The translations under genes and the position numbers were made by a program. From contig CAYWTN010000001.1 in assembly GCA_964460975.1 (NCBI GenBank), positions 61,202-125,201 of the forward strand: a DNA stretch of 64,000 bases, in the 5' to 3' direction. This stretch comes from an uncultured Pseudomonadales bacterium (GTDB lineage: Bacteria; Patescibacteriota; Microgenomatia; UBA1400; UBA1396). The notes below the pieces were generated by a model, which was given only the letters and a program-made list of their open reading frames with translations, did no database searches and had not been told where the DNA came from. Positions 3,519 to 55,896 of this stretch are shown piece after piece (the stretch's first letter is position 1; each line of letters starts with the position of its first letter).

Positions 3519-4273
3519 ACTTCCACTTTCTCCTTACTTTCTTTTTCTGGGGAAGCGTCCTTGTCGGACTTTTCACTCTTTTTTTCTTTCTTTTTCTTAG
3601 CAGACTCTTTGACCGGGCGATCCTCAACCAGCTTCCCTTGATGCAGGTGCAGTTCACGTGCCGGCTGATTCTTCAGTAAATTCTGATCATGAGTAGCAAT
3701 GAGAACGGTCGTGCCCAGATCCGCAATGGTCTGCAAAAGTTGACCGATCGCACTTCCTGTAACCGGATCAAGGTTGCCTGTTGGTTCGTCGGCAAAAAGA
3801 ACTTTTGGGCGCATCGCCAGCGCGCGCGCGATGGCGATGCGCTGGAGCTCACCACCAGAAAGCTGTGCGGGGAACATGTCTTTACGATCTGCCAGGCCAA
3901 CAAGATCAAGGACATCGAGCACTGACTTCATCTTTTCTTCACGGGAAGCGCCGATAATTTCGAGGGCGAGTGAGACATTTTCCTCAATAGTTCGTTCGGA
4001 AAGCAGTTTATAATCCTGAAAAACGACCGCCACTTGGCGTCGCAAAAACGGAATGTGATGGGACTTGAGATCGCCCAAAGGCTCATCATCAAGGTATATT
4101 TCACCAGAACTTGGGATAAGGTCGCGAATAAGCAGTCGCATGAGCGTGGTCTTGCCTGCTCCAGACTCACCAACCACGTAATTCACCGATCCGGGCTCCA
4201 CCAGAAAGCTCACATCCTCCAGACCAATATATCCGTTAGAAAAAACTTTACCGACGTTTTCGAATCGAATCAC
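3515..4273 (-). CDS. ftsE: Cell division ATP-binding protein FtsE
   Basis: Walker [13 protein letters not shown] signature [15 protein letters not shown] and Walker B. Lys/Glu-rich C-terminal tail. Confidence 0.85.
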
Positions 4274-4285
4274 GAGTCCTACCTT

Positions 4286-4750
4286 TTAGTTTTCCTTGTA
4301 CCATGATGGTTTTTCACCATCAACCTTTGCCACTTCCAACCGACCAACATCCATCAGCCAGCCAGCTTTTTGTCCTTTAAAGGTTTCACCCCAAACACGA
4401 ACCTGCATATTCTCAAACTGATCAAGGTCAACAACCGATGAAGTGAGGTAAACGTTTTGGGAAACCCCTCCGTCGCGCAGCAAGGTGTGAGACCCTTCGC
4501 CAGCAATACCACCTTTAATGAGAACTCCCGTGACTTCATCGCGGAAAGTTTTTTCGTCTGGAACGCCGAAAACAGCTCCTGCTTTGACAGCGGCCCCGAC
4601 CTCTTCTGCGGTTTTGTCTTGTTCAACCGCCACAGGAGTGCCAGATGAGGATTGGGAGGCAAAACTCAACGCGATACCGGTTCCTGCCCCAGCAAGAAGC
4701 ACCAAAGTGAGCACACCGGCCACCATTTTTCGTGAAATACTCATTTTCAT
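4286..4750 (-). CDS. Hypothetical membrane-anchored (N-terminal TM) protein
   Basis: The ORF track extends to 4966. The likely start is MKMSISRKMVAGVLTLVLLAG. No recognisable domain. Confidence 0.4.
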   Translation of the reverse strand: MKMSISRKMVAGVLTLVLLAGAGTGIALSFASQSSSGTPVAVEQDKTAEEVGAAVKAGAVFGVPDEKTFRDEVTGVLIKGGIAGEGSHTLLRDGGVSQNVYLTSSVVDLDQFENMQVRVWGETFKGQKAGWLMDVGRLEVAKVDGEKPSWYKEN

Positions 4751-4948
4751 GCCTTTTTCCTTTGTAAATTCGCGTTTTTTCTCTGGATTCTCCAGGCCAA
4801 CTGTCACGGTGTTTGGTCGAGCAGGAATACTGGAAGACGACTCTTCCGCTTCTGGTTGACGAAACTGAACTCGATCAAATGACATATGAGGGCTCCTTAA
4901 GCAATCTGTGCGTTCACTGTAACAAATTTTGCTCCAAAATTGAAGATC

Positions 4949-5032
4949 GGAATCGTTCCGCCGCATTGCTTCCTCAAGGGGAATCGACCCGGGTCGATTC
5001 CCCTTGAGGTGATGTACTGGCGGAACGATTCC
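4949..5032 (-). terminator. Compound perfect palindrome immediately after the prfB stop codon (putative terminator or protein-binding site)
   Basis: The outer 14-bp arms are GGAATCGTTCCGCC and GGCGGAACGATTCC. They flank an inner perfect 38-nt palindrome, CCTCAAGGGGAATCGACCCGGGTCGATTCCCCTTGAGG. The downstream U-tract is weak. Confidence 0.4.
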
Positions 5033-5034
5033 GG

Positions 5035-6141
5035 TTAGGAAGAAAGAAGTGAAATCTCGGCAAAGATAAAATCTGCGAGATCACCGTCCAAAACGGCGTC
5101 CGAATCGGTAGTTTCCACTTCCGTTCGTGTGTCTTTTACCAGGTGATAAGGATGCAAAACATAGTTTCGGATTTGGTTTCCCCAGGAAGCCATCTTGTGC
5201 TCGCCGCGAACTCGTGAAAGCTCTGCTCGACGATCAAGCTCTTTACGCTCAGCCAACTTGGCCTTAAGAATAGCCAGAGCCAACTTTTTATTCTGCTCCT
5301 GACTGCGTTCCTGGCGCGTATCCACCACAATCCCCGTAGGAATGTGGGTAAGATGCACCGCACTGTTCACCTTGTTTACGTTTTGCCCACCGGCTCCACC
5401 AGCGCGAGTAAAATGCCATTCAAGCTCGTCAGGCTTGAGCTCAATGGTCTTGTCGTCTTCGGGAATGAGCGGAAGAACCTCAACACCAGAGAAAGAAGTT
5501 TGTCTTAATCCATCCGCATTAAAAGGACTTTGCCGAACAAGACGATGCGTCCCAGCCTCACCCTTGAGATAGCCATAAGCATACGCGCCATGCACCAAAT
5601 ACGTAGCAGACTTAATACCTGCCTCTTCTCCACGACTTTCTTCAACAAGCTCCATTTTCCAACCCTGACGTTGAAAAAAACGCTCATACATACGCTGAAC
5701 CATACTGGCCCAGTCCATGGCTTCGGTACCACCTTGCCCGGCATGGATCGAGAGAATAGCATTCATACTGTCATACGGTCCAGAAAGGTATGTCTGCAAC
5801 TCAATTGTTTTATTGAGTTGACGCAGTCGCAGCAACAAAGCGTGGAACTCAGACTCTAAACTGAGATCATCACTTTCCGCCACCAGCTCTGCAACAGCTT
5901 GGAGATCATTGAGAAGCTGTATCTGCTCATCCAACTGATCCAACTGTTGGCCAATCGCACTCATTTCTTGGTTCACGGACTGTGCTTTTTCCTGGTCGGA
6001 CCAAAAATCGGGCTGCATGGTTTGTGTCTCAAGTTCTGAACGTCGCTGCTCAACGGCACTGCGATCAATACTGCGCGCCAAATCTTGCGCCTTTTCGCGC
6101 GATTCTTGCCACTGATCTTGCAGTGCTTTGGAAAGTATCAT
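5035..6141 (-). CDS. prfB: Peptide chain release factor 2
   Basis: GGQ motif ([23 protein letters not shown]) and the RF2-specific SPF motif (RQSPFNADG). Uninterrupted 368-aa ORF. Confidence 0.9.
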
Positions 6142-6153
6142 GGCGTAAGTATA

Positions 6154-6621
6154 TCAGGGACGAGAAAAATTCGGTGAGGACTCGTAGGCAGAAACCACAC
6201 CTTTGCAGTACTGATAACGCGCCTCATTCACCACATCAACCGAAACGGCCCCTGCCTGAAGTTGCGCTTGCGTGAGAACTTCTCCTACCGCTTCCTGGGC
6301 CCCACGCTCTCGAACACTCTGCCAGAATTCTTTGGGTGTTGTAGAAAATGTAGCCGAAAGCGTCGTGCTGGCAGCACTTTGCACCATTTCTGGCAGGGAA
6401 AAATCCATACTTCCAGAACGCCACTGCGGAGAACGAATCATCTGAGCAACTTGTTCATCAAGTGACTGAACCGATGAGCGCCAATCTGGTTGGGAAAAGG
6501 AAAGGTTCATAGCCGCTGCGTTTGAGGCCCCACCACCAAAGACTTGCACACCCCACAAAAGAGCAGCTCCAATAACGAGAAGAAGCAAAAAGAAGACAAA
6601 CCGAAAGCGTCCAAACTGCAT
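6154..6621 (-). CDS. Hypothetical protein with N-terminal TM helix
   Basis: 155 aa. Hydrophobic N-terminus. No recognisable domain. Confidence 0.4.
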   Translation of the reverse strand: MQFGRFRFVFFLLLLVIGAALLWGVQVFGGGASNAAAMNLSFSQPDWRSSVQSLDEQVAQMIRSPQWRSGSMDFSLPEMVQSAASTTLSATFSTTPKEFWQSVRERGAQEAVGEVLTQAQLQAGAVSVDVVNEARYQYCKGVVSAYESSPNFSRP

Positions 6622-26545: not shown

Positions 26546-28054
26546 ATGTGGAATATTTTGCGCCGATCATTTACCCAAGCCATCACCGCTTGTCTTTTAG
26601 CCGCTGCCTTCTTCTTTCAAGCCAGCGCACCGGCTCTCGCCATTAATTACGCTGGTGGCACCTACACAAACCTCTGTGGAAGTGGTTACAGTGCCAACTC
26701 CCACAGCTGCAATGGCGGTTGTAACACCGGTTCTGGGAGTTGTAGTGCTGGCGGCAATTTTGTCGTGAAGTTTGTTTGTGATGGAAGACAGGGCGAATGT
26801 AGAAGCAACGAAAGCAGTTTCTCTACCAGCCAATCGGTGAGTGGCGTCGGTTGTGGTAAAACCGTTCAGATCGACGTTTTTAACAAAACCTGCCGTATGT
26901 CTAATGGCAGTTGGACTTGTGGCGACGGTGATCTCAAAGACTACATCGTTTGGTACTCTGGAGACTGTTCCAATAACAACCCTCCGCCAAGCAATCCTCA
27001 GCCCAAGCCAGATCCCACACCAACCCCTCCGGCCGATTCTTGTTCCAACTGGATGCCAATTGATGTGCAGTTCCGCAAGTCTGGAGAGACAAGCTGGACT
27101 ACCGGCTCACAGCTCACCAGGCAAGAACTCAAGGTAAACGATAAAGTTGATGCCTACTGTTTTGCCAAAAATGCTACCGCGAGTCTCAAAGACGCTAACA
27201 TGGAAATTCGCAAACCTGATGGCACAACCGAAAAGGTCAGTGGCGCACGGGTGAACGGCTACACGATTGCTCAAAACGGAGCCTACGTCTTCACCTGTAC
27301 TTCAAGCTCGCTGCGTCTCTGCTATGACAGTGATATGTTCAGCGTTCACGACAACCAAGTCAGCAGCTGTAGCGAACTTTCGGTGCTCAGTGGAAACGAT
27401 CAAACCGTGCCAGCCACCGTCAAGTTCCGAGCCGCTGGCAGAGATAATAAAGGTGATATCAAACAATACCGCTTCTTCTTTGGAGATGGCCAGCGAGTAG
27501 AAACGAGCCAAGCTGAAGTTGAGCACCGCTACGAAACATCGGGGAACTTCTGGGCCAAAGTTGAGGTAAAGGACACCAACGGCACCTGGAAAACCAGCAC
27601 GGCTTGTGAGGCCAGTGTTCGCCTCAAGTCATCCTCAATAGAGTCACACCGCTCTGGCTGCAGTGATGTCTTCATCCTGGAAGGCAATAATGCCGAAGCA
27701 CCAACCACGACTAAGTTCCGTATTACCGGCTTCGACAACAAAGGCGGCGTACAACAGTTCCGTTTAGATTTTGGCAACGGAATTGTCAAAGAACAATCTG
27801 GTGAGTACTTTGAGCAAACCTTTGATCAAGCTGGAACCTACAGTATCAAAGGCTACGTGAAAGATAGTCAAGGCAACTGGAAAGGTGGCGAAGGAAGCTG
27901 CGCCCCAACACTCTATGTGAAGACCAAGCCTCTCACCACGCAGCCCAAGACCGGAACGCCAACCAATATCTCCATCTTTGCTATTACGAGTGGATTTATT
28001 GGAACAGTGATGCTCATGCGCCACTTGAGAGTTGCCAAGAAGCACACCCGCTAA
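26546..28054 (+). CDS. Secreted surface protein with Cys-rich N-terminal region, two PKD-like repeats and a C-terminal sortase-type sorting signal
   Basis: Signal peptide. Repeats ...VKFRAAGRDNKGDIKQYRFFFGDGQ...HRYETSGNFWAKVEVKDTNG and ...TKFRITGFDNKGGVQQFRLDFGNG...GTYSIKGYVKDSQG are PKD-like. The C-terminus is LTTQPKTG + hydrophobic helix + RHLRVAKKHTR. Confidence 0.7.
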   Translation: MWNILRRSFTQAITACLLAAAFFFQASAPALAINYAGGTYTNLCGSGYSANSHSCNGGCNTGSGSCSAGGNFVVKFVCDGRQGECRSNESSFSTSQSVSGVGCGKTVQIDVFNKTCRMSNGSWTCGDGDLKDYIVWYSGDCSNNNPPPSNPQPKPDPTPTPPADSCSNWMPIDVQFRKSGETSWTTGSQLTRQELKVNDKVDAYCFAKNATASLKDANMEIRKPDGTTEKVSGARVNGYTIAQNGAYVFTCTSSSLRLCYDSDMFSVHDNQVSSCSELSVLSGNDQTVPATVKFRAAGRDNKGDIKQYRFFFGDGQRVETSQAEVEHRYETSGNFWAKVEVKDTNGTWKTSTACEASVRLKSSSIESHRSGCSDVFILEGNNAEAPTTTKFRITGFDNKGGVQQFRLDFGNGIVKEQSGEYFEQTFDQAGTYSIKGYVKDSQGNWKGGEGSCAPTLYVKTKPLTTQPKTGTPTNISIFAITSGFIGTVMLMRHLRVAKKHTR

Positions 28055-41238: not shown

Positions 41239-41250
41239 AATTCTTCTCTT

Positions 41251-41328
41251 CCGCCATGGGCATACTCGAGAAGAGTCCCTTTTTTGCGGCGATGAGTGAG
41301 TATGCCCATGGCGGAGAGGGCGAGATTC
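41251..41328. repeat. Repeat R1: 17-bp inverted repeat hairpin (CCGCCATGGGCATACTC ... GAGTATGCCCATGGCGG) fused to a 20-nt copy of the tRNA-Ser 3' end
   Basis: TGGCGGAGAGGGCGAGATTC at 41309-41328 duplicates 41446-41465. A second copy of the roughly 62-nt hairpin core occurs at 52998-53064, at about 92% identity. Confidence 0.6.
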
Positions 41329-41445: not shown

Positions 41446-41535
41446 TGGCGGAGAGGGCGAGATTCGAACTCGCGGTGCCATTGCTGACACGGAGGTTTAG
41501 TAAACCTCTGCACTCGGCCACTATGCGACCTCTCC
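41446..41535 (-). tRNA. tRNA-Ser, type II with long variable arm and encoded CCA; anticodon loop UUACUAA gives apparent anticodon ACU
   Basis: GGAGAGG-TC-GCA-TAGTGGCCGAG-TGC-A-GAGGT-TTACTAA-ACCTC-CGTGTCAGCAATGGCACC-GCGAG-TTCGAAT-CTCGC-CCTCTCC-G-CCA. Confidence 0.8.
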
Positions 41536-51065: not shown

Positions 51066-51668
51066 ATGAATGGTAAAGTCAAAGATCATATGGATAAAGA
51101 ACAGACAGAATCACAAAGAATAAATCAAGGACTCAACCTGTATTCAGAACGCGAAAAGGTTCCCTACAATAATATTGACTCATTATCACCGAAAAGCCAA
51201 AGTATTTGTCGAGTTACCCTTGTTCCTTTTTTTACAGAAAATAAACAAACTTTTTCTGAAGTTGTAGACGCTCTGAAAAAACTCAAAAATGAGCAAGAAA
51301 TTGACTTTGATCCCATCCAAATCTTCCGTGAAAAACTTCTTCCAATGGGTGCACAACTTGAACTTGATTTATTTGACAACTACACAAACGATGAGAATCC
51401 CGCCAGCCTATTTTACGAAAACGGAAAAATCGTTTTATATGTAAATGTTTCACTTAATAGGCGATCTGAGTATAAAAATCTTCTTTCTGAATTATTCCAT
51501 GAATTTTCGGCACTTTTCCTTATGCAAAAAAAGGCTGAAGGACTCGGGAGAGAAATTCAGAGCGCTGCTGATTTAGCTCTTTACAAGCAAATGCTCAAGT
51601 TAGAAGAAGGTATCCATCTCACCCACATTGCCGATGCGGCTCTCATAAGCGCAACAAGAAATTCTTAA
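51066..51668 (+). CDS. Hypothetical protein (200 aa)
   Basis: Divergent from the DUF2130-like gene. No motif recognised. Confidence 0.4.
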
Positions 51669-52655: not shown

Positions 52656-52898
52656 TTATGAACGTCTGTGATGAGCAATCCAGGCGACAATCTGCACATC
52701 TGTATACATCGCTGTCCCCTTCATACCAAGATCTTTAGCAAACTTCTGTAGTCCTGCAAAGGAATCACCTGCCTCTTTTCGTATAGCATCATAAGTCCCA
52801 GGACCAAACTCCTCATCAATTTGCTCTGGTTCTCGTGTGTGATATTCCATCAAATCAAACTTTCCTTCTGATGACCGGTCGAAAGATTCCATAGACAC
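52656..52898 (-). CDS. Small hypothetical acidic protein (80 aa)
   Basis: ORF only. Confidence 0.3.
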   Translation of the reverse strand: MSMESFDRSSEGKFDLMEYHTREPEQIDEEFGPGTYDAIRKEAGDSFAGLQKFAKDLGMKGTAMYTDVQIVAWIAHHRRS

Positions 52899-52997
52899 TC
52901 CTTTGCTTACGAATTATTAGTAATATCTAACAACAAAATTCCCCTGTCAAGTGTTGAGCTGGGTAGATAGCATAATTCAAAACTTTCCAGCTCTGTT

Positions 52998-53087
52998 GCC
53001 GCCTTGGGCATACTCACGAAGAGTCCCTTTTTTGCGGCGATGAGTAAGTGTGCCCATGGCGGAGCACCCGGGTCTGGAACCCGTGCG
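52998..53087. repeat. Repeat R2: second copy of the R1 hairpin core followed by a different tRNA-like 3' fragment ending in CCA
   Basis: GCCTTGGGCATACTCACGAAGAGTCCCTTTTTTGCGGCGATGAGTAAGTGTGCCCATGGCGGAG, then CACCCGGGTCTGGAACCCGTGCG. The reverse complement is a T-arm/acceptor-like ...GGTTCCAGACCCGGGTGCTCCGCCA. Confidence 0.55.
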
Positions 53088-53257
53088 TCGTTATAAGTGT
53101 TATACATTTTGGCAAAGTAGTAAATAGCCATTAAACCTCCTTTATCCATTTGGGTAAGTAGTGTAGCTGGATGGGTCATAAGGTAGTTTTTAGTACTTTT
53201 CCCGTTCTTTTTGGGCATTTGTTTCAAACAAACTAGTCATGTATTATTATTTCTAAT

Positions 53258-54385
53258 ATGCCTGATATTATTGAAAATGTGGCCCGTTTAACTAACTCTG
53301 AAGAAATCAATCACAAGAGATTTGATGAACATTTGGATATAGCGCAAGAAATAGAAGTTCCTGTAACTGTTGTTGAAAGTGCTGCTAGGTGGGTTTCAGG
53401 CAGAGGTAAGAGCGATATTCGTTACCTAGTGACACCTACTTCAGGCAGGAACACTTCGATGGCTTTGGCTGAAGGAATTAGCTTTAAACAAGAAAAATAT
53501 TTTTGGGTATACGCAAAAGGCAATGGCTCGCCGTTATCCGCTTTAGAATCTGATTCTCCTTACCGTACAGATGATAGATTTGAAGGTGAAGGAGGCTCTG
53601 TTTCAGGGCATCTTTCCGTAAGCGAGGCACGAAAAGACGCGGAAGCAACCCTAAAAGCAATAAATATGGGTGTGAGAACGAGGGTTCCCATTGCGGGTTT
53701 TTTGTTGGATGAAGTTATGGTAAATGGGCAAGTAATATCTAGCGAAGAATTTATTCATCAATTTAGGACTCCAAAGATAAAAGAGTCTCAAAACATATAT
53801 CTAAAGGATGGAGCCCATGCTGAACACCCATATCTTATTGAATATCTGACACGTAATCCTTTTAAGAACCTTGATATTTTATTTCTTTTACAAAAAGCAA
53901 TTACTCAAAGATTTATTAACCCAGAGTTAATGCTAGCCTTAATGGTTGGTGTTAAAACTTGGCAAAGTGATAACCTGAAACAGTATAGGGATTTGGGAAA
54001 CAAGTGGAAAGAACCACTAGAAAAAAGGAGACTTTCACCCCAGGAAACATATTTCATTGTTGTTGATGCAATTATTGCACAACAACAGGTTATGGCGGAG
54101 AATTTAGCTAGACTTCATGGAAATAACTTACATCATGGAAATCTGCATGGTCAAAATATCAGTTTTTTTTCTGGAGAATTAAGTGATTTTGTTACGATGA
54201 ATAAGGGCAATTTGCTTGGAGAAATGGATGATGATGTGGATATATATGCTGAGGACATTGAGAGATTTAAAGAAATTTTAATTCAGTTTAGTGGAACTTT
54301 TGGAATTAGTGATCATGGACCATTGTCGAATATTCTAAATAGAAGTAGTTTTAAAATAAAAAAAGAGAGTTTGAAAGTATACTGA
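53258..54385 (+). CDS. AT-rich hypothetical protein (375 aa) with possible protein-kinase-like catalytic loop
   Basis: The sampled region is about 35% GC, against about 50% estimated for the flanks. LHHGNLHGQNISF resembles the APH/kinase HGDLHxxNI loop with Asp replaced by Asn. LSDFV is DFG-like. Confidence 0.5.
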   Translation: MPDIIENVARLTNSEEINHKRFDEHLDIAQEIEVPVTVVESAARWVSGRGKSDIRYLVTPTSGRNTSMALAEGISFKQEKYFWVYAKGNGSPLSALESDSPYRTDDRFEGEGGSVSGHLSVSEARKDAEATLKAINMGVRTRVPIAGFLLDEVMVNGQVISSEEFIHQFRTPKIKESQNIYLKDGAHAEHPYLIEYLTRNPFKNLDILFLLQKAITQRFINPELMLALMVGVKTWQSDNLKQYRDLGNKWKEPLEKRRLSPQETYFIVVDAIIAQQQVMAENLARLHGNNLHHGNLHGQNISFFSGELSDFVTMNKGNLLGEMDDDVDIYAEDIERFKEILIQFSGTFGISDHGPLSNILNRSSFKIKKESLKVY

Positions 54386-54595
54386 GTGTGTCAAGCACCC
54401 CTTGGCCTATTTAGGCAAGTAGATTGGACTGTCAGAACCTTTTAACTGTTGCGGAAGCGATGGGCAGAATTATTTTAAGCTCTAAGTGAATATTCTGCAT
54501 CTTCGGGCTTTCAGCCCTCGAGATTCTTGCTGCGCAGGATATCTTCACACAAACCAGTTATAAAAAAGTTCCAGCGATGCTGGATTTTTTACAAG

Positions 54596-54682
54596 CGGAG
54601 AGGGCGAGATTCGAACTCGCGGTGAGCTTGCACCCACAGTAGTTTTCAAGACTACCGCACTAGACCACTATGCGACCTCTCC
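54596..54682 (-). tRNA. tRNA-Ser (TGA), type II, no encoded CCA
   Basis: GGAGAGG-TC-GCA-TAGTGGTCTAG-TGC-G-GTAGT-CTTGAAA-ACTAC-TGTGGGTGCAAGCTCACC-GCGAG-TTCGAAT-CTCGC-CCTCTCC-G. The acceptor and T-arm are identical to the tRNA-Ser at 41446. Confidence 0.85.
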
Positions 54683-55368: not shown

Positions 55369-55896
55369 AAACAGAAAAGCAAAAACATGCACCAGCCGCG
55401 CCGGTGAGGAAAAAGTGGAGATGCCGGGGAACGACCCCGGGTCCGAAAAAGAAACATCAACAAGGACTACGCGTGTAGAAGCATTTTGGCTCGAAGCAGA
55501 AAACGAGAAATGATCAAAACTGTTTTCTGCGCCAATGGAAGGTCTTAGCAGATTGGAGTCATTGCGCCCCAAACCTGAGCATATTTTCTGTGTTTACACC
55601 TTTGCACCCACGAAAATAAGATGAGATACAAAGGCGCCTTTTACGCAAAAACGTAAGAAGGAGCAGTGAAAGTGGAAGCCACTTCGCGAGCGAAGGACTT
55701 AGCAGCTGTCACAGCTTTGCCGAATGAATTGGCATGTATTGTTTTGACCCATAACGAAGGTCAATCGACGCGCCCATGTTCACGATCTCTCCCGTCAAAT
55801 CAGTACATCCCCAATTTGCTTAAGAAGCTCTACCCTCTATTATAGCAAAACAGCCCTTGCCAGTCACGTGAGTGGTTCGCTACACTAACCCCAAGC

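Follow-up and report, generated by a model that had tools for sequence, protein, structure and literature searches.

We analyzed a 64-kb stretch of contig CAYWTN010000001.1 (hereafter, the window, position 1 being its first nucleotide). The window is chromosomal and encodes acetyl-CoA synthetase, a P-type ATPase, GlpX, ComF, and a transfer-messenger RNA (tmRNA). Between a tRNA-Ser(TGA) gene and a hairpin repeat, designated R2, it contains an inserted block of 1,536 bp, counted with one copy of the hexanucleotide CTCCGC (53059-54594, no strand assigned). This block, referred to as the cassette, was delimited by blastn, pairwise alignment, and in-silico excision. It carries one cargo gene (53258-54385, plus strand), which encodes a 375-amino-acid protein predicted to adopt a SelO-like protein-kinase-like fold. 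The GC content of this open reading frame (ORF) is 36.5%. Its GC content at third codon positions (GC3), 26.9%, is the lowest of the 60 non-overlapping ORFs of the window (mean GC, 48.0%; mean GC3, 47.9%; standard deviation, 7.3 points), about 2.9 standard deviations below the window mean. The cassette as a whole contains 37.7% GC versus 46-47% in its immediate flanks, the value for the entire window being 47.8%. The cassette DNA is foreign and AT-rich, in agreement with a first-pass annotation made from the sequence alone, which had singled out this ORF as AT-richer than its neighbors.

The tRNA-Ser(TGA) locus and the ends of the cassette

The tRNA-Ser(TGA) gene, which is the attachment target, occupies positions 54595-54682 on the minus strand (ARAGORN; Rfam tRNA model, 58.3 bits; sequence reading). 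It terminates in ...CCCTCTCCGC, followed by TTG, so that the CCA end is not encoded. The other tRNA-Ser gene of the window (41446-41535, minus strand) does encode CCA, and reading of the sequence agrees with the first-pass annotation on this difference between the two genes. ARAGORN assigned the anticodon ACT, with an unusual A34, to the latter tRNA. On the opposite side of the cassette, R2 copy 2 (52999-53064, no strand assigned) consists of CTCCGCCA and a 58-nt hairpin, as delineated by repeat finding, folding, and the reconstructed junction described below. This copy is 92% identical to R2 copy 1 (41251-41316), and both copies fold as a long hairpin (z = -6.3 and -2.9 for copies 1 and 2, respectively). 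CTCCGC forms a 6-nt direct repeat at the two ends of the cassette, the proximal copy (54595-54600) being located within tRNA-Ser(TGA). On the tRNA strand, the proximal end reads ...CCCT[CTCCGC]|TTGTAAAAAATCCAGC... and the distal end reads ...CCCGGGTG[CTCCGC]|CATGGGCA, running into R2.

In-silico removal of 53059-54594 joined the 3' end of the tRNA to R2, generating a tRNA-Ser-CCA-R2 junction. A paralogous reference for this junction is present in the window (41251-41328, no strand assigned; repeat finding, sequence, and alignment to the reconstructed empty site). At this position, 20 nt that perfectly repeat the 3' end of tRNA-Ser and include CCA (41309-41328) are directly joined to R2 copy 1, 117 nt downstream of tRNA-Ser(ACT). 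The reconstructed 85-nt junction and the real sequence at 41244-41328 were identical at 78 of 85 positions (92%). This match supports precise insertion after ...CTCCGC, and we take R2 copy 2 to be the native continuation of tRNA-Ser(TGA) prior to this event. An annotation oddity is thereby explained, since tRNA-Ser(TGA) lacks an encoded CCA because the insertion split the tRNA from its original CCA. Segment 41309-41535 itself resembles a 137-nt 'empty' insertion or duplication located at the same position as the cassette but at the other tRNA-Ser gene.

The distal end of the cassette contains a tRNA-like fragment (53049-53083, minus strand), ACGGG-TTCCAGA-CCCGG-GTGCTCC-G-CCA, whose layout is exactly 5+7+5+7+1+3, corresponding to the T arm, the 3' strand of the acceptor stem, the discriminator, and CCA. 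The first-pass annotation had described R2 as ending in a CCA-terminated fragment resembling the 3' half of a tRNA. Such a fragment is present, but only its last 8 nt (CTCCGCCA) belong to R2, the remainder being part of the inserted block. The corresponding att-like site (53059-53096, minus strand), TTATAACGACGCACGGGTTCCAGACCCGGGTGCTCCGC, has the layout of a tRNA 3' half, ends in the distal copy of CTCCGC (53059-53064), and is conserved in a second copy of the cassette described below. Two matches to the site pattern were observed in the window versus 0.05 expected. With the signature GTTCYA-N(8-20)-CTCCRCMA, for which shuffling gave 0.05 matches expected per 64 kb, four matches were found in L006 and one in L013, two loci containing relatives of the cargo gene. 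These enrichment figures are indicative only because the pattern was designed after the data had been seen. The other match in the window (26967-26989, plus strand; GTTCCAATAACAACCCTCCGCCA) lies within a 502-amino-acid ORF, in a proline-rich stretch, and probably occurs by chance. The fragment does not copy the 3' end of tRNA-Ser(TGA). Two other origins were considered and rejected: the fragment does not match the 3' end of the nearby tmRNA, and it cannot be the displaced native 3' half of tRNA-Ser(TGA), whose 5' end, GGAGAGG, cannot pair with the acceptor sequence GTGCTCC.

Three additional features were detected within the cassette or overlapping it. First, a hairpin, TCCAGC-GAT-GCTGGA (54570-54584, no strand assigned), has the properties of a bidirectional intrinsic terminator (two-strand terminator scan, RNA folding, and alignment with the second copy). 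It has an A run on one side and a T run on the other, lies 10 nt from the end of the tRNA, and belongs to the cassette in both copies. As predicted from its sequence, it can terminate transcription of both the tRNA gene and the convergent cargo gene. Second, a promoter-like sequence, TTCAAA-16-TATTAT (53223-53250, plus strand; consensus scan and sequence), ends 8 nt before the ATG codon of the cargo gene (53258), which is not preceded by a Shine-Dalgarno sequence. This combination suggests that the cargo transcript may be leaderless or nearly so. Third, a short divergent ORF of 74 amino acids (52907-53131, minus strand) follows a Shine-Dalgarno sequence that is perfect, AAAGGAGG (53136-53143). 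The part of this ORF that is inside the cassette and common to the second copy is limited to the first ~21 codons, the ORF running through the att-like site into R2. No homologue of its putative product was found among the neighbors of the other members of the cargo family.

A second copy of the cassette at another tRNA-Ser gene

An exact protein look-up located the cargo protein on one other contig, designated L001, a short contig of 3,063 bp from the Logan assembly of SRR23005873. In blastn comparisons, L001 aligned to the window only over 53059-54652. The extension of the alignment into the tRNA is only apparent because tRNA-Ser genes resemble each other: the L001 cassette adjoins tRNA-Ser(CGA) rather than tRNA-Ser(TGA), and everything outside the shared stretch is unrelated. 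Global alignment revealed 11 differences between position 53071 and the tRNA end at 54594 (~1.5 kb, ~99.3% identity), of which a single one, synonymous, lies in the 1,128-nt ORF. The ends of the L001 copy read ...CGCT[TCCGC]|TTGTAAAAAA... (proximal) and ...GATGTC[CCGC]|AACAATCG (distal). The cassette is therefore found in the same orientation at the 3' ends of two tRNA-Ser genes, with different genes on the far side. Judged from these sequences, the 1.5-kb unit represents a small mobile cassette and not an ordinary gene. Integration at a tRNA 3' end, as proposed in the first-pass annotation, is borne out by the exact boundary, the CTCCGC repeat, the excision junction, and this second tRNA-Ser context.

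No integrase was found, in agreement with the first-pass annotation. Scans against Pfam and NCBIfam did not detect any recombinase domain in the cassette or in those neighboring ORFs that were scanned, and tblastn searches with E. coli XerD and a large serine recombinase gave no match in the 64 kb. Transposition was considered and judged unconvincing, since the only terminal inverted match was a 7-nt sequence, CTGGAAC, located at unequal distances from the two ends. Another explanation, already raised in the first-pass annotation, is that the cassette is the decayed remnant of a larger integrase-bearing element (prophage, integrative and conjugative element, or tycheposon-like element) that inserted at tRNA-Ser and lost most of its genes in place. 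This explanation fits the foreign composition, the lack of an integrase, and the location at the 3' end of a tRNA gene. In tycheposon islands, degenerate remnants and partial tRNAs have been described beside tRNA-Ser(TGA) and tmRNA (bioRxiv 10.1101/2020.12.28.424599). However, two copies with the same two ends and only 11 differences are present at different tRNA-Ser genes and in unrelated flanks. Independent decay would not yield identical ends, indicating that the 1.5-kb unit itself moved or was exchanged. Moreover, no integrase fragment is present in 53059-54594, where the ORF, the promoter region, the terminator, and the site together leave no base unexplained. Decay in place is therefore doubtful, and we regard it as unlikely.

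A site of the same type was detected in another context. A genome search with TrhO, a neighbor of the cassette, returned two loci only (68-69% identity), neither of which showed synteny with the window. One of these, L002, is a contig of a metagenome-assembled genome that encodes a TrhO protein 68% identical to that of the window and has no tRNA-Ser gene. L002 contains a ~40-nt site (2405-2446) that is 86% identical to positions 53059-53100 of the window, in an AT-rich stretch and with different genes beside it. The site is directly followed by TTGAAAAAT and a hairpin, an arrangement that resembles the tRNA-proximal start of the cassette, TTGTAAAAAAT plus hairpin. This is what a joined site, in a circular form or a tandem, would look like, with the mimic of the tRNA 3' half followed by the terminator. 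No related genome carrying the cargo gene at the same place with a host-like GC content was found. Among viral contigs, neither a relative of the cargo protein nor a copy of the site was detected, and a viral fold library gave weak kinase matches only.

Other features of the neighborhood deserve mention. A second AT-rich ORFan (51066-51668, plus strand; 200 amino acids) has the second lowest GC3 of the window (29.9%; GC, 36.3%). It is located between the genes for a DUF2130 protein and TrhO and overlaps the start of the former. Its product had no match in Pfam or NCBIfam and a weak match in PADLOC (E 0.009), and it is a singleton in a collection of 15 billion proteins. No att-like site was seen beside this ORF. 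An ORF of 80 amino acids (52656-52898, minus strand), located between R2 and TrhO and preceded by a promoter-like site (52950-52922), matched no family, and the exact sequence of its product is absent from the protein collection. The tmRNA gene (55413-55812, minus strand; Rfam, 88 bits) was missed by ARAGORN and does not encode CCA; it lies just beyond ComF, ~0.7 kb from tRNA-Ser(TGA). An exact look-up of the ComF protein gave no match.

The cargo protein

The cargo protein had no match in Pfam, PADLOC, or PHROG, and function libraries gave nothing usable for its family. The sole profile match in these scans was a weak NCBIfam hit to the catalytic-loop region of Bud32 (E 0.006). A word-seeded search of 5.8 billion proteins returned only the cargo protein itself, and a k-mer-seeded search with the family alignment added one member. 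Exhaustive phmmer comparison with 1.84 billion cluster representatives identified 13 proteins at E ≤ 0.001: the query, P0013 (2,024 amino acids, probably an artefact of a repeat region), and 11 relatives showing ~26-34% identity. By this search, the family is extremely rare, and it is unannotated. Four residues are invariant in the family alignment (R142, N300, E307, and D310) and eleven are nearly so (R64, K87, G117, D127, G138, P201, D206, H293, G294, H297, and I301). KGtGxP and HGNLHdQNISFFGELcDN emerge as consensus motifs. Conservation is highest in the stretch that contains LHHGNLHGQNISF and LSDFV, to which the first-pass annotation had drawn attention.

An AlphaFold2 model, built from a shallow alignment of 12 sequences, had a mean predicted local distance difference test (pLDDT) score of 74 and a predicted template-modeling score of 0.76. 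The core (residues 55-350) was mostly above 85 in pLDDT, and residues 1-54 were predicted to be disordered. The top six Foldseek matches were all E. coli YdiU/SelO (E ~1e-5), followed by APH(3') and kinases. According to the model, the fold is protein-kinase-like and closest to SelO/YdiU. The first-pass annotation had proposed a fold of the APH and protein-kinase type; a kinase-like fold was found, but its nearest relative is SelO/YdiU and not APH. The replacement of the catalytic Asp by Asn also proved correct, N295 occupying the position of the HxD Asp, N300 that of the catalytic-loop Asn, and D310 that of the DFG Asp. N295 is itself variable in the family. The suggestion of a defence or toxin effector received no support from any library match, and such a role is possible.

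In SelO/YdiU, Arg87, Lys107, Arg170, and Arg177 hold the phosphates and Asn247 and Asp256 bind the metals (bioRxiv 10.1101/692707; PMC8097203). Mutation of Asp246, which has been proposed as the general base, abolishes activity (bioRxiv 10.1101/692707). The motifs of the family have been summarized as WHLK / HGVMNTDN / DYG (PMC12599244). We compared the cargo family with SelO by hhalign, using a SelO profile that was shallow because a k-mer-seeded search with E. coli SelO recovered only relatives of at least 79% identity. The alignment was confident only in the catalytic loop (HGNLHGQNISFF-GELSD versus HGVMNTDNMSLL-GLTLD). In this segment, N300 and D310 align to E. coli SelO N247 and D256, the Asp of the kinase HRD motif is absent (N295), and the general base Asp246 aligns to Q299, a position occupied by Gln in most members but by Ser in P0005 and by His in P0011. 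A permissive, full-length alignment of low confidence pairs R64, K87, D127, and K203 with R87, K107, E130, and R177 (E. coli numbering), respectively, and the KGxGxP motif of the family with HLKGAGxTP of SelO. E130 is the alphaC Glu of SelO. K203 is replaced by Arg in most family members, and an equivalent of R170 was not identified. The cargo protein ends at residue 375 (...KESLKVY), soon after the kinase-like core, and the C-terminal domain and tail of SelO are absent. As far as can be judged from its sequence, the cargo protein therefore keeps nucleotide- and metal-binding residues and lacks both the kinase Asp and the SelO base. It can best be described, on the basis of the model, as a member of a new, rare SelO-like family.

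Alternatively, the cargo might be a conventional phosphotransferase, acting either on proteins, as a protein kinase, or on small molecules, as a kinase of the APH, Bud32, or RIO type. HGNLHxQNI resembles HGDLxxxNI, weak matches to Bud32 were obtained with NCBIfam (see above) and with a PDB profile (E 0.65-1.4), and kinases and APH are among the fold matches. No Pkinase or APH match was obtained for the family, the only profile matches being the sub-threshold ones to Bud32, and the Asp of the HxD position is the residue that is replaced by N295. We consider this assignment to be quite improbable.

Related loci, proposed mechanism, and known systems

The genes of the family contain 33-41% GC in every locus examined, with host flanks at 30-48%. 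In the window, L001, and L004, the three contexts of higher GC content, they are AT-rich outliers. Two relatives are close to tRNA or tmRNA genes. In L013, a metagenome contig from JGI, the homologue is convergent with the tmRNA gene (6081-6491), ends 22 nt from its 3' end, and is located next to ComF. Each of the two upstream ORFs is followed by a 32-nt repeat (3694-3725 and 4489-4520) that reads ...TCCACCA on the tmRNA strand, as does the tmRNA 3' end. These repeats suggest that two or three single-gene units may be stacked beside the tmRNA gene. In L017, the homologue (4337-5689) is convergent with tRNA-Gln (5815-5886, minus strand), 126 nt apart, and the spacer contains a partial tRNA-like end, GGTTCGAATCCTAGCCACCA (5754-5773, plus strand), on the strand opposite to tRNA-Gln. 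In L013 as in the window, the family gene is close to both ComF and the tmRNA gene, an arrangement open to another reading, that of old synteny, in which the cargo gene would be a native, vertically inherited gene of odd composition and the repeats would be terminators associated with tRNAs. Against this stand the extreme GC3, the copy with only 11 differences at another tRNA in unrelated flanks, the lack of synteny in the nearest relatives of the host TrhO, and the extreme rarity of the family (13 clusters among 1.84 billion representatives). Vertical inheritance is already largely refuted and appears very improbable.

An array was found in L006, a 1.08-Mb contig (GCA_020632265.1, JACKFW010000001.1) of 31% GC. 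Between positions 3562 and 11791, the homologue is found among nine same-strand repeats distributed in nine consecutive intergenic regions, 0.6-2.2 kb apart. The repeats read (A)GGTTCTAAC...CCTCCGC or GTTCCAAT...CTCTCCGC, diverge directly after ...CCGC, and in some cases extend to imperfect palindromes of ~100 nt. They separate mostly unannotated genes, the SelO-like homologue having an overlapping upstream ORF of 81 amino acids. A large serine recombinase, a Rep protein, and an rve fragment are encoded at the edges of the array. Taken at the level of sequence, the locus is an array of at least nine putative single-gene units separated by pseudo-tRNA-end repeats. In L004 (GCA_964618135.1), the homologue (669-1768; 36.4% GC versus 44.1% in the flanks) is located 48 nt upstream of an operator resembling CIRCE (controlling inverted repeat of chaperone expression) and of hrcA-grpE-dnaK. 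YdiU has been reported to UMPylate chaperones, and the position beside chaperone genes may be a functional hint or a coincidence. A conserved small partner protein was sought and rejected, since the small ORFs beside the homologues in different loci are unrelated to one another.

Together, these observations lead us to regard the locus as probably an integrase-less cassette of 1.5 kb, inserted site-specifically at the 3' end of tRNA-Ser(TGA), with a SelO-like cargo that may transfer a nucleoside monophosphate (NMP). Before the insertion, the tRNA would have ended in ...CTCTCCGC-CA and led straight into the R2 hairpin. The crossover would have taken place in or next to CTCCGC, whence the presence of this sequence at either end of the cassette today, and we infer that a recombinase encoded elsewhere acted in trans. 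The ~38-nt mimic of the tRNA 3' half (T arm, acceptor strand, ...CTCCGC) is presumably the sequence that the recombinase recognizes. The cassette would supply the bidirectional terminator that now ends the tRNA gene, in addition to the single cargo gene with its promoter-like site. A circular form would have the junction ...GGGTGCTCCGC|TTGTAAAAAATCC. The cassette was probably acquired recently from a donor lineage of lower GC content. The cargo protein is predicted to bind a nucleoside triphosphate and a divalent metal through R64, K87, D127, N300, and D310, and to transfer an NMP-type group to a protein, or to catalyze a related reaction, by means of a different base. The nearly invariant H297 and the invariant E307 are candidates for this role.

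Several observations weigh against this interpretation. With respect to the DNA, the Rfam tRNA model did not score the fragment at 53049-53083, even as a truncated hit, and for this reason the tRNA-likeness of the fragment depends on its layout and context. The direct repeat comprises 6 nt in the window and only 4-5 nt in L001, and over its final ~11 nt the site diverges between the two copies more than does the rest of the cassette. An empty site was not found in a sister genome, the reference used being a paralogous locus of the same genome, and neither a recombinase, nor a circular form, nor excision was identified or observed. No tRNA gene is present near the homologues of L004, L009, and L016. 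With respect to the protein, PF02696 was not matched at E ≤ 1 by the window protein or by any of the 12 family members, and hhalign against the SelO alignment gave a probability of 4-5%, so that the sequence link is not significant. The mapping of residues in the N-lobe is weak because it depends on the low-confidence alignment and on a structure predicted from 12 sequences. Finally, Q299 replaces an Asp that is essential in YdiU, and the protein could therefore be inactive.

The latter point leads to a further alternative, in which the cargo is a pseudokinase without catalytic activity, its function being limited to the binding of a nucleotide or of a partner protein. The loss of both known general bases (N295 in place of the kinase Asp and Q299 in place of SelO Asp246) is what would be expected of such a protein. 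In contrast, K87, N300, D310, R142, and E307 show little or no variation in a family with ~25% pairwise identity, which argues for a conserved active site. A purely binding role is, in our view, rather unlikely, and an active NMP-transferring enzyme is retained as the preferred interpretation of the cargo.

A broader proposal, which we consider less likely than not, is that the cassette belongs to an undescribed, integron-like system of small-genome uncultivated bacteria that combines units ending in tRNA or tmRNA mimics, a trans-acting recombinase, arrays, and a recurrent SelO-like cargo. The units, of one or two genes, would each terminate in a stretch of ~30-40 nt that imitates the 3' end of a tRNA or a tmRNA (GGTTCYA...CTCC(G/A)C) and would be inserted serially at the very 3' terminus of tRNA-Ser or tmRNA genes. 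Arrays would arise in this manner, such as the nine consecutive units of L006 and the two to three units beside the L013 tmRNA gene. The SelO-like protein, devoid of the two known catalytic bases, would recur as cargo and have a novel chemistry.

These findings have implications for both the protein and the element. A rare, unannotated SelO/YdiU-like branch that keeps the nucleotide and metal ligands, with both candidate bases replaced, offers a direct test of the residues that SelO-type chemistry needs and of whether the fold supports another reaction. At the DNA level, a minimal, integrase-less, single-gene unit is present at two tRNA-Ser genes, and similar repeats separate single genes in the arrays of other small genomes. 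If a dedicated recombinase exists, this would amount to cassette capture analogous to that of integrons but anchored at tRNA and tmRNA ends, in organisms in which the routes of gene flow are poorly known.

Compared with known proteins, the cargo shares the fold of SelO/YdiU (PF02696), an AMPylating or UMPylating pseudokinase, with no significant match in sequence. SelO chains contain 476-491 residues and end in ...SCSS, whereas the cargo protein has 375 residues and lacks the C-terminal regulatory domain and the Cys/Sec-Ser-Ser tail. The general base of E. coli SelO, Asp246, corresponds to Gln299 in the cargo. The cargo family is rare and does not represent a widespread housekeeping gene, several of its loci being located at tRNA or tmRNA 3' ends or in an island with genes of mobile elements. 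Bud32, RIO, and APH proteins have a catalytic loop of the HGDLxxxNI type and the same fold class, and Bud32 provided the only profile matches, which were weak.

At the DNA level, one parallel is provided by the tRNA- or tmRNA-anchored islands and islets that integrative elements build, such as the tycheposons of Prochlorococcus and their degenerate remnants, which also insert at tRNA 3' ends and for which tRNA-Ser(TGA) and tmRNA genes are among the targets. Features in common are boundary repeats resembling partial tRNAs, cargo of foreign composition, and, in relatives of the cassette, tandem accumulation. Unlike tycheposons, the cassette is a single-gene unit of 1.5 kb without an integrase or a replication module. 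It shares ~6 nt with the tRNA 3' end rather than an identical tRNA segment of ~40 nt, and its site mimics a tRNA end without copying the target, two tRNA-Ser isoacceptor genes being used.

Integron cassettes, attC arrays, and clusters of attC sites lacking an integron integrase (CALINs) provide a second parallel, as they consist of one- or two-gene units without a recombinase, with a structured repeat at the end and, as in L006, arrays in the same direction; in addition, sites of the same type flank different cargo. A literature search on integrons, attC, and Patescibacteria yielded only papers of the resistome type, as judged from titles and abstracts. The system differs from integrons in that no IntI was seen and no canonical R''/R' cores (RYYYAAC / GTTRRRY) are present in the window site or the L006 repeats, the only near match to the core sites being L006 GGTTCTAAC / TAGAACC in an inspection that did not involve a dedicated attC model. 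In addition, the sites look like the 3' ends of tRNA-Ser or tmRNA and have genuine tRNA or tmRNA genes as their anchors, and the window cassette has its own promoter-like site and terminator. By analogy, the DNA element would work like a tRNA-anchored islet of the tycheposon type, and the related loci appear to be organized like cassette arrays that recall those of integrons.

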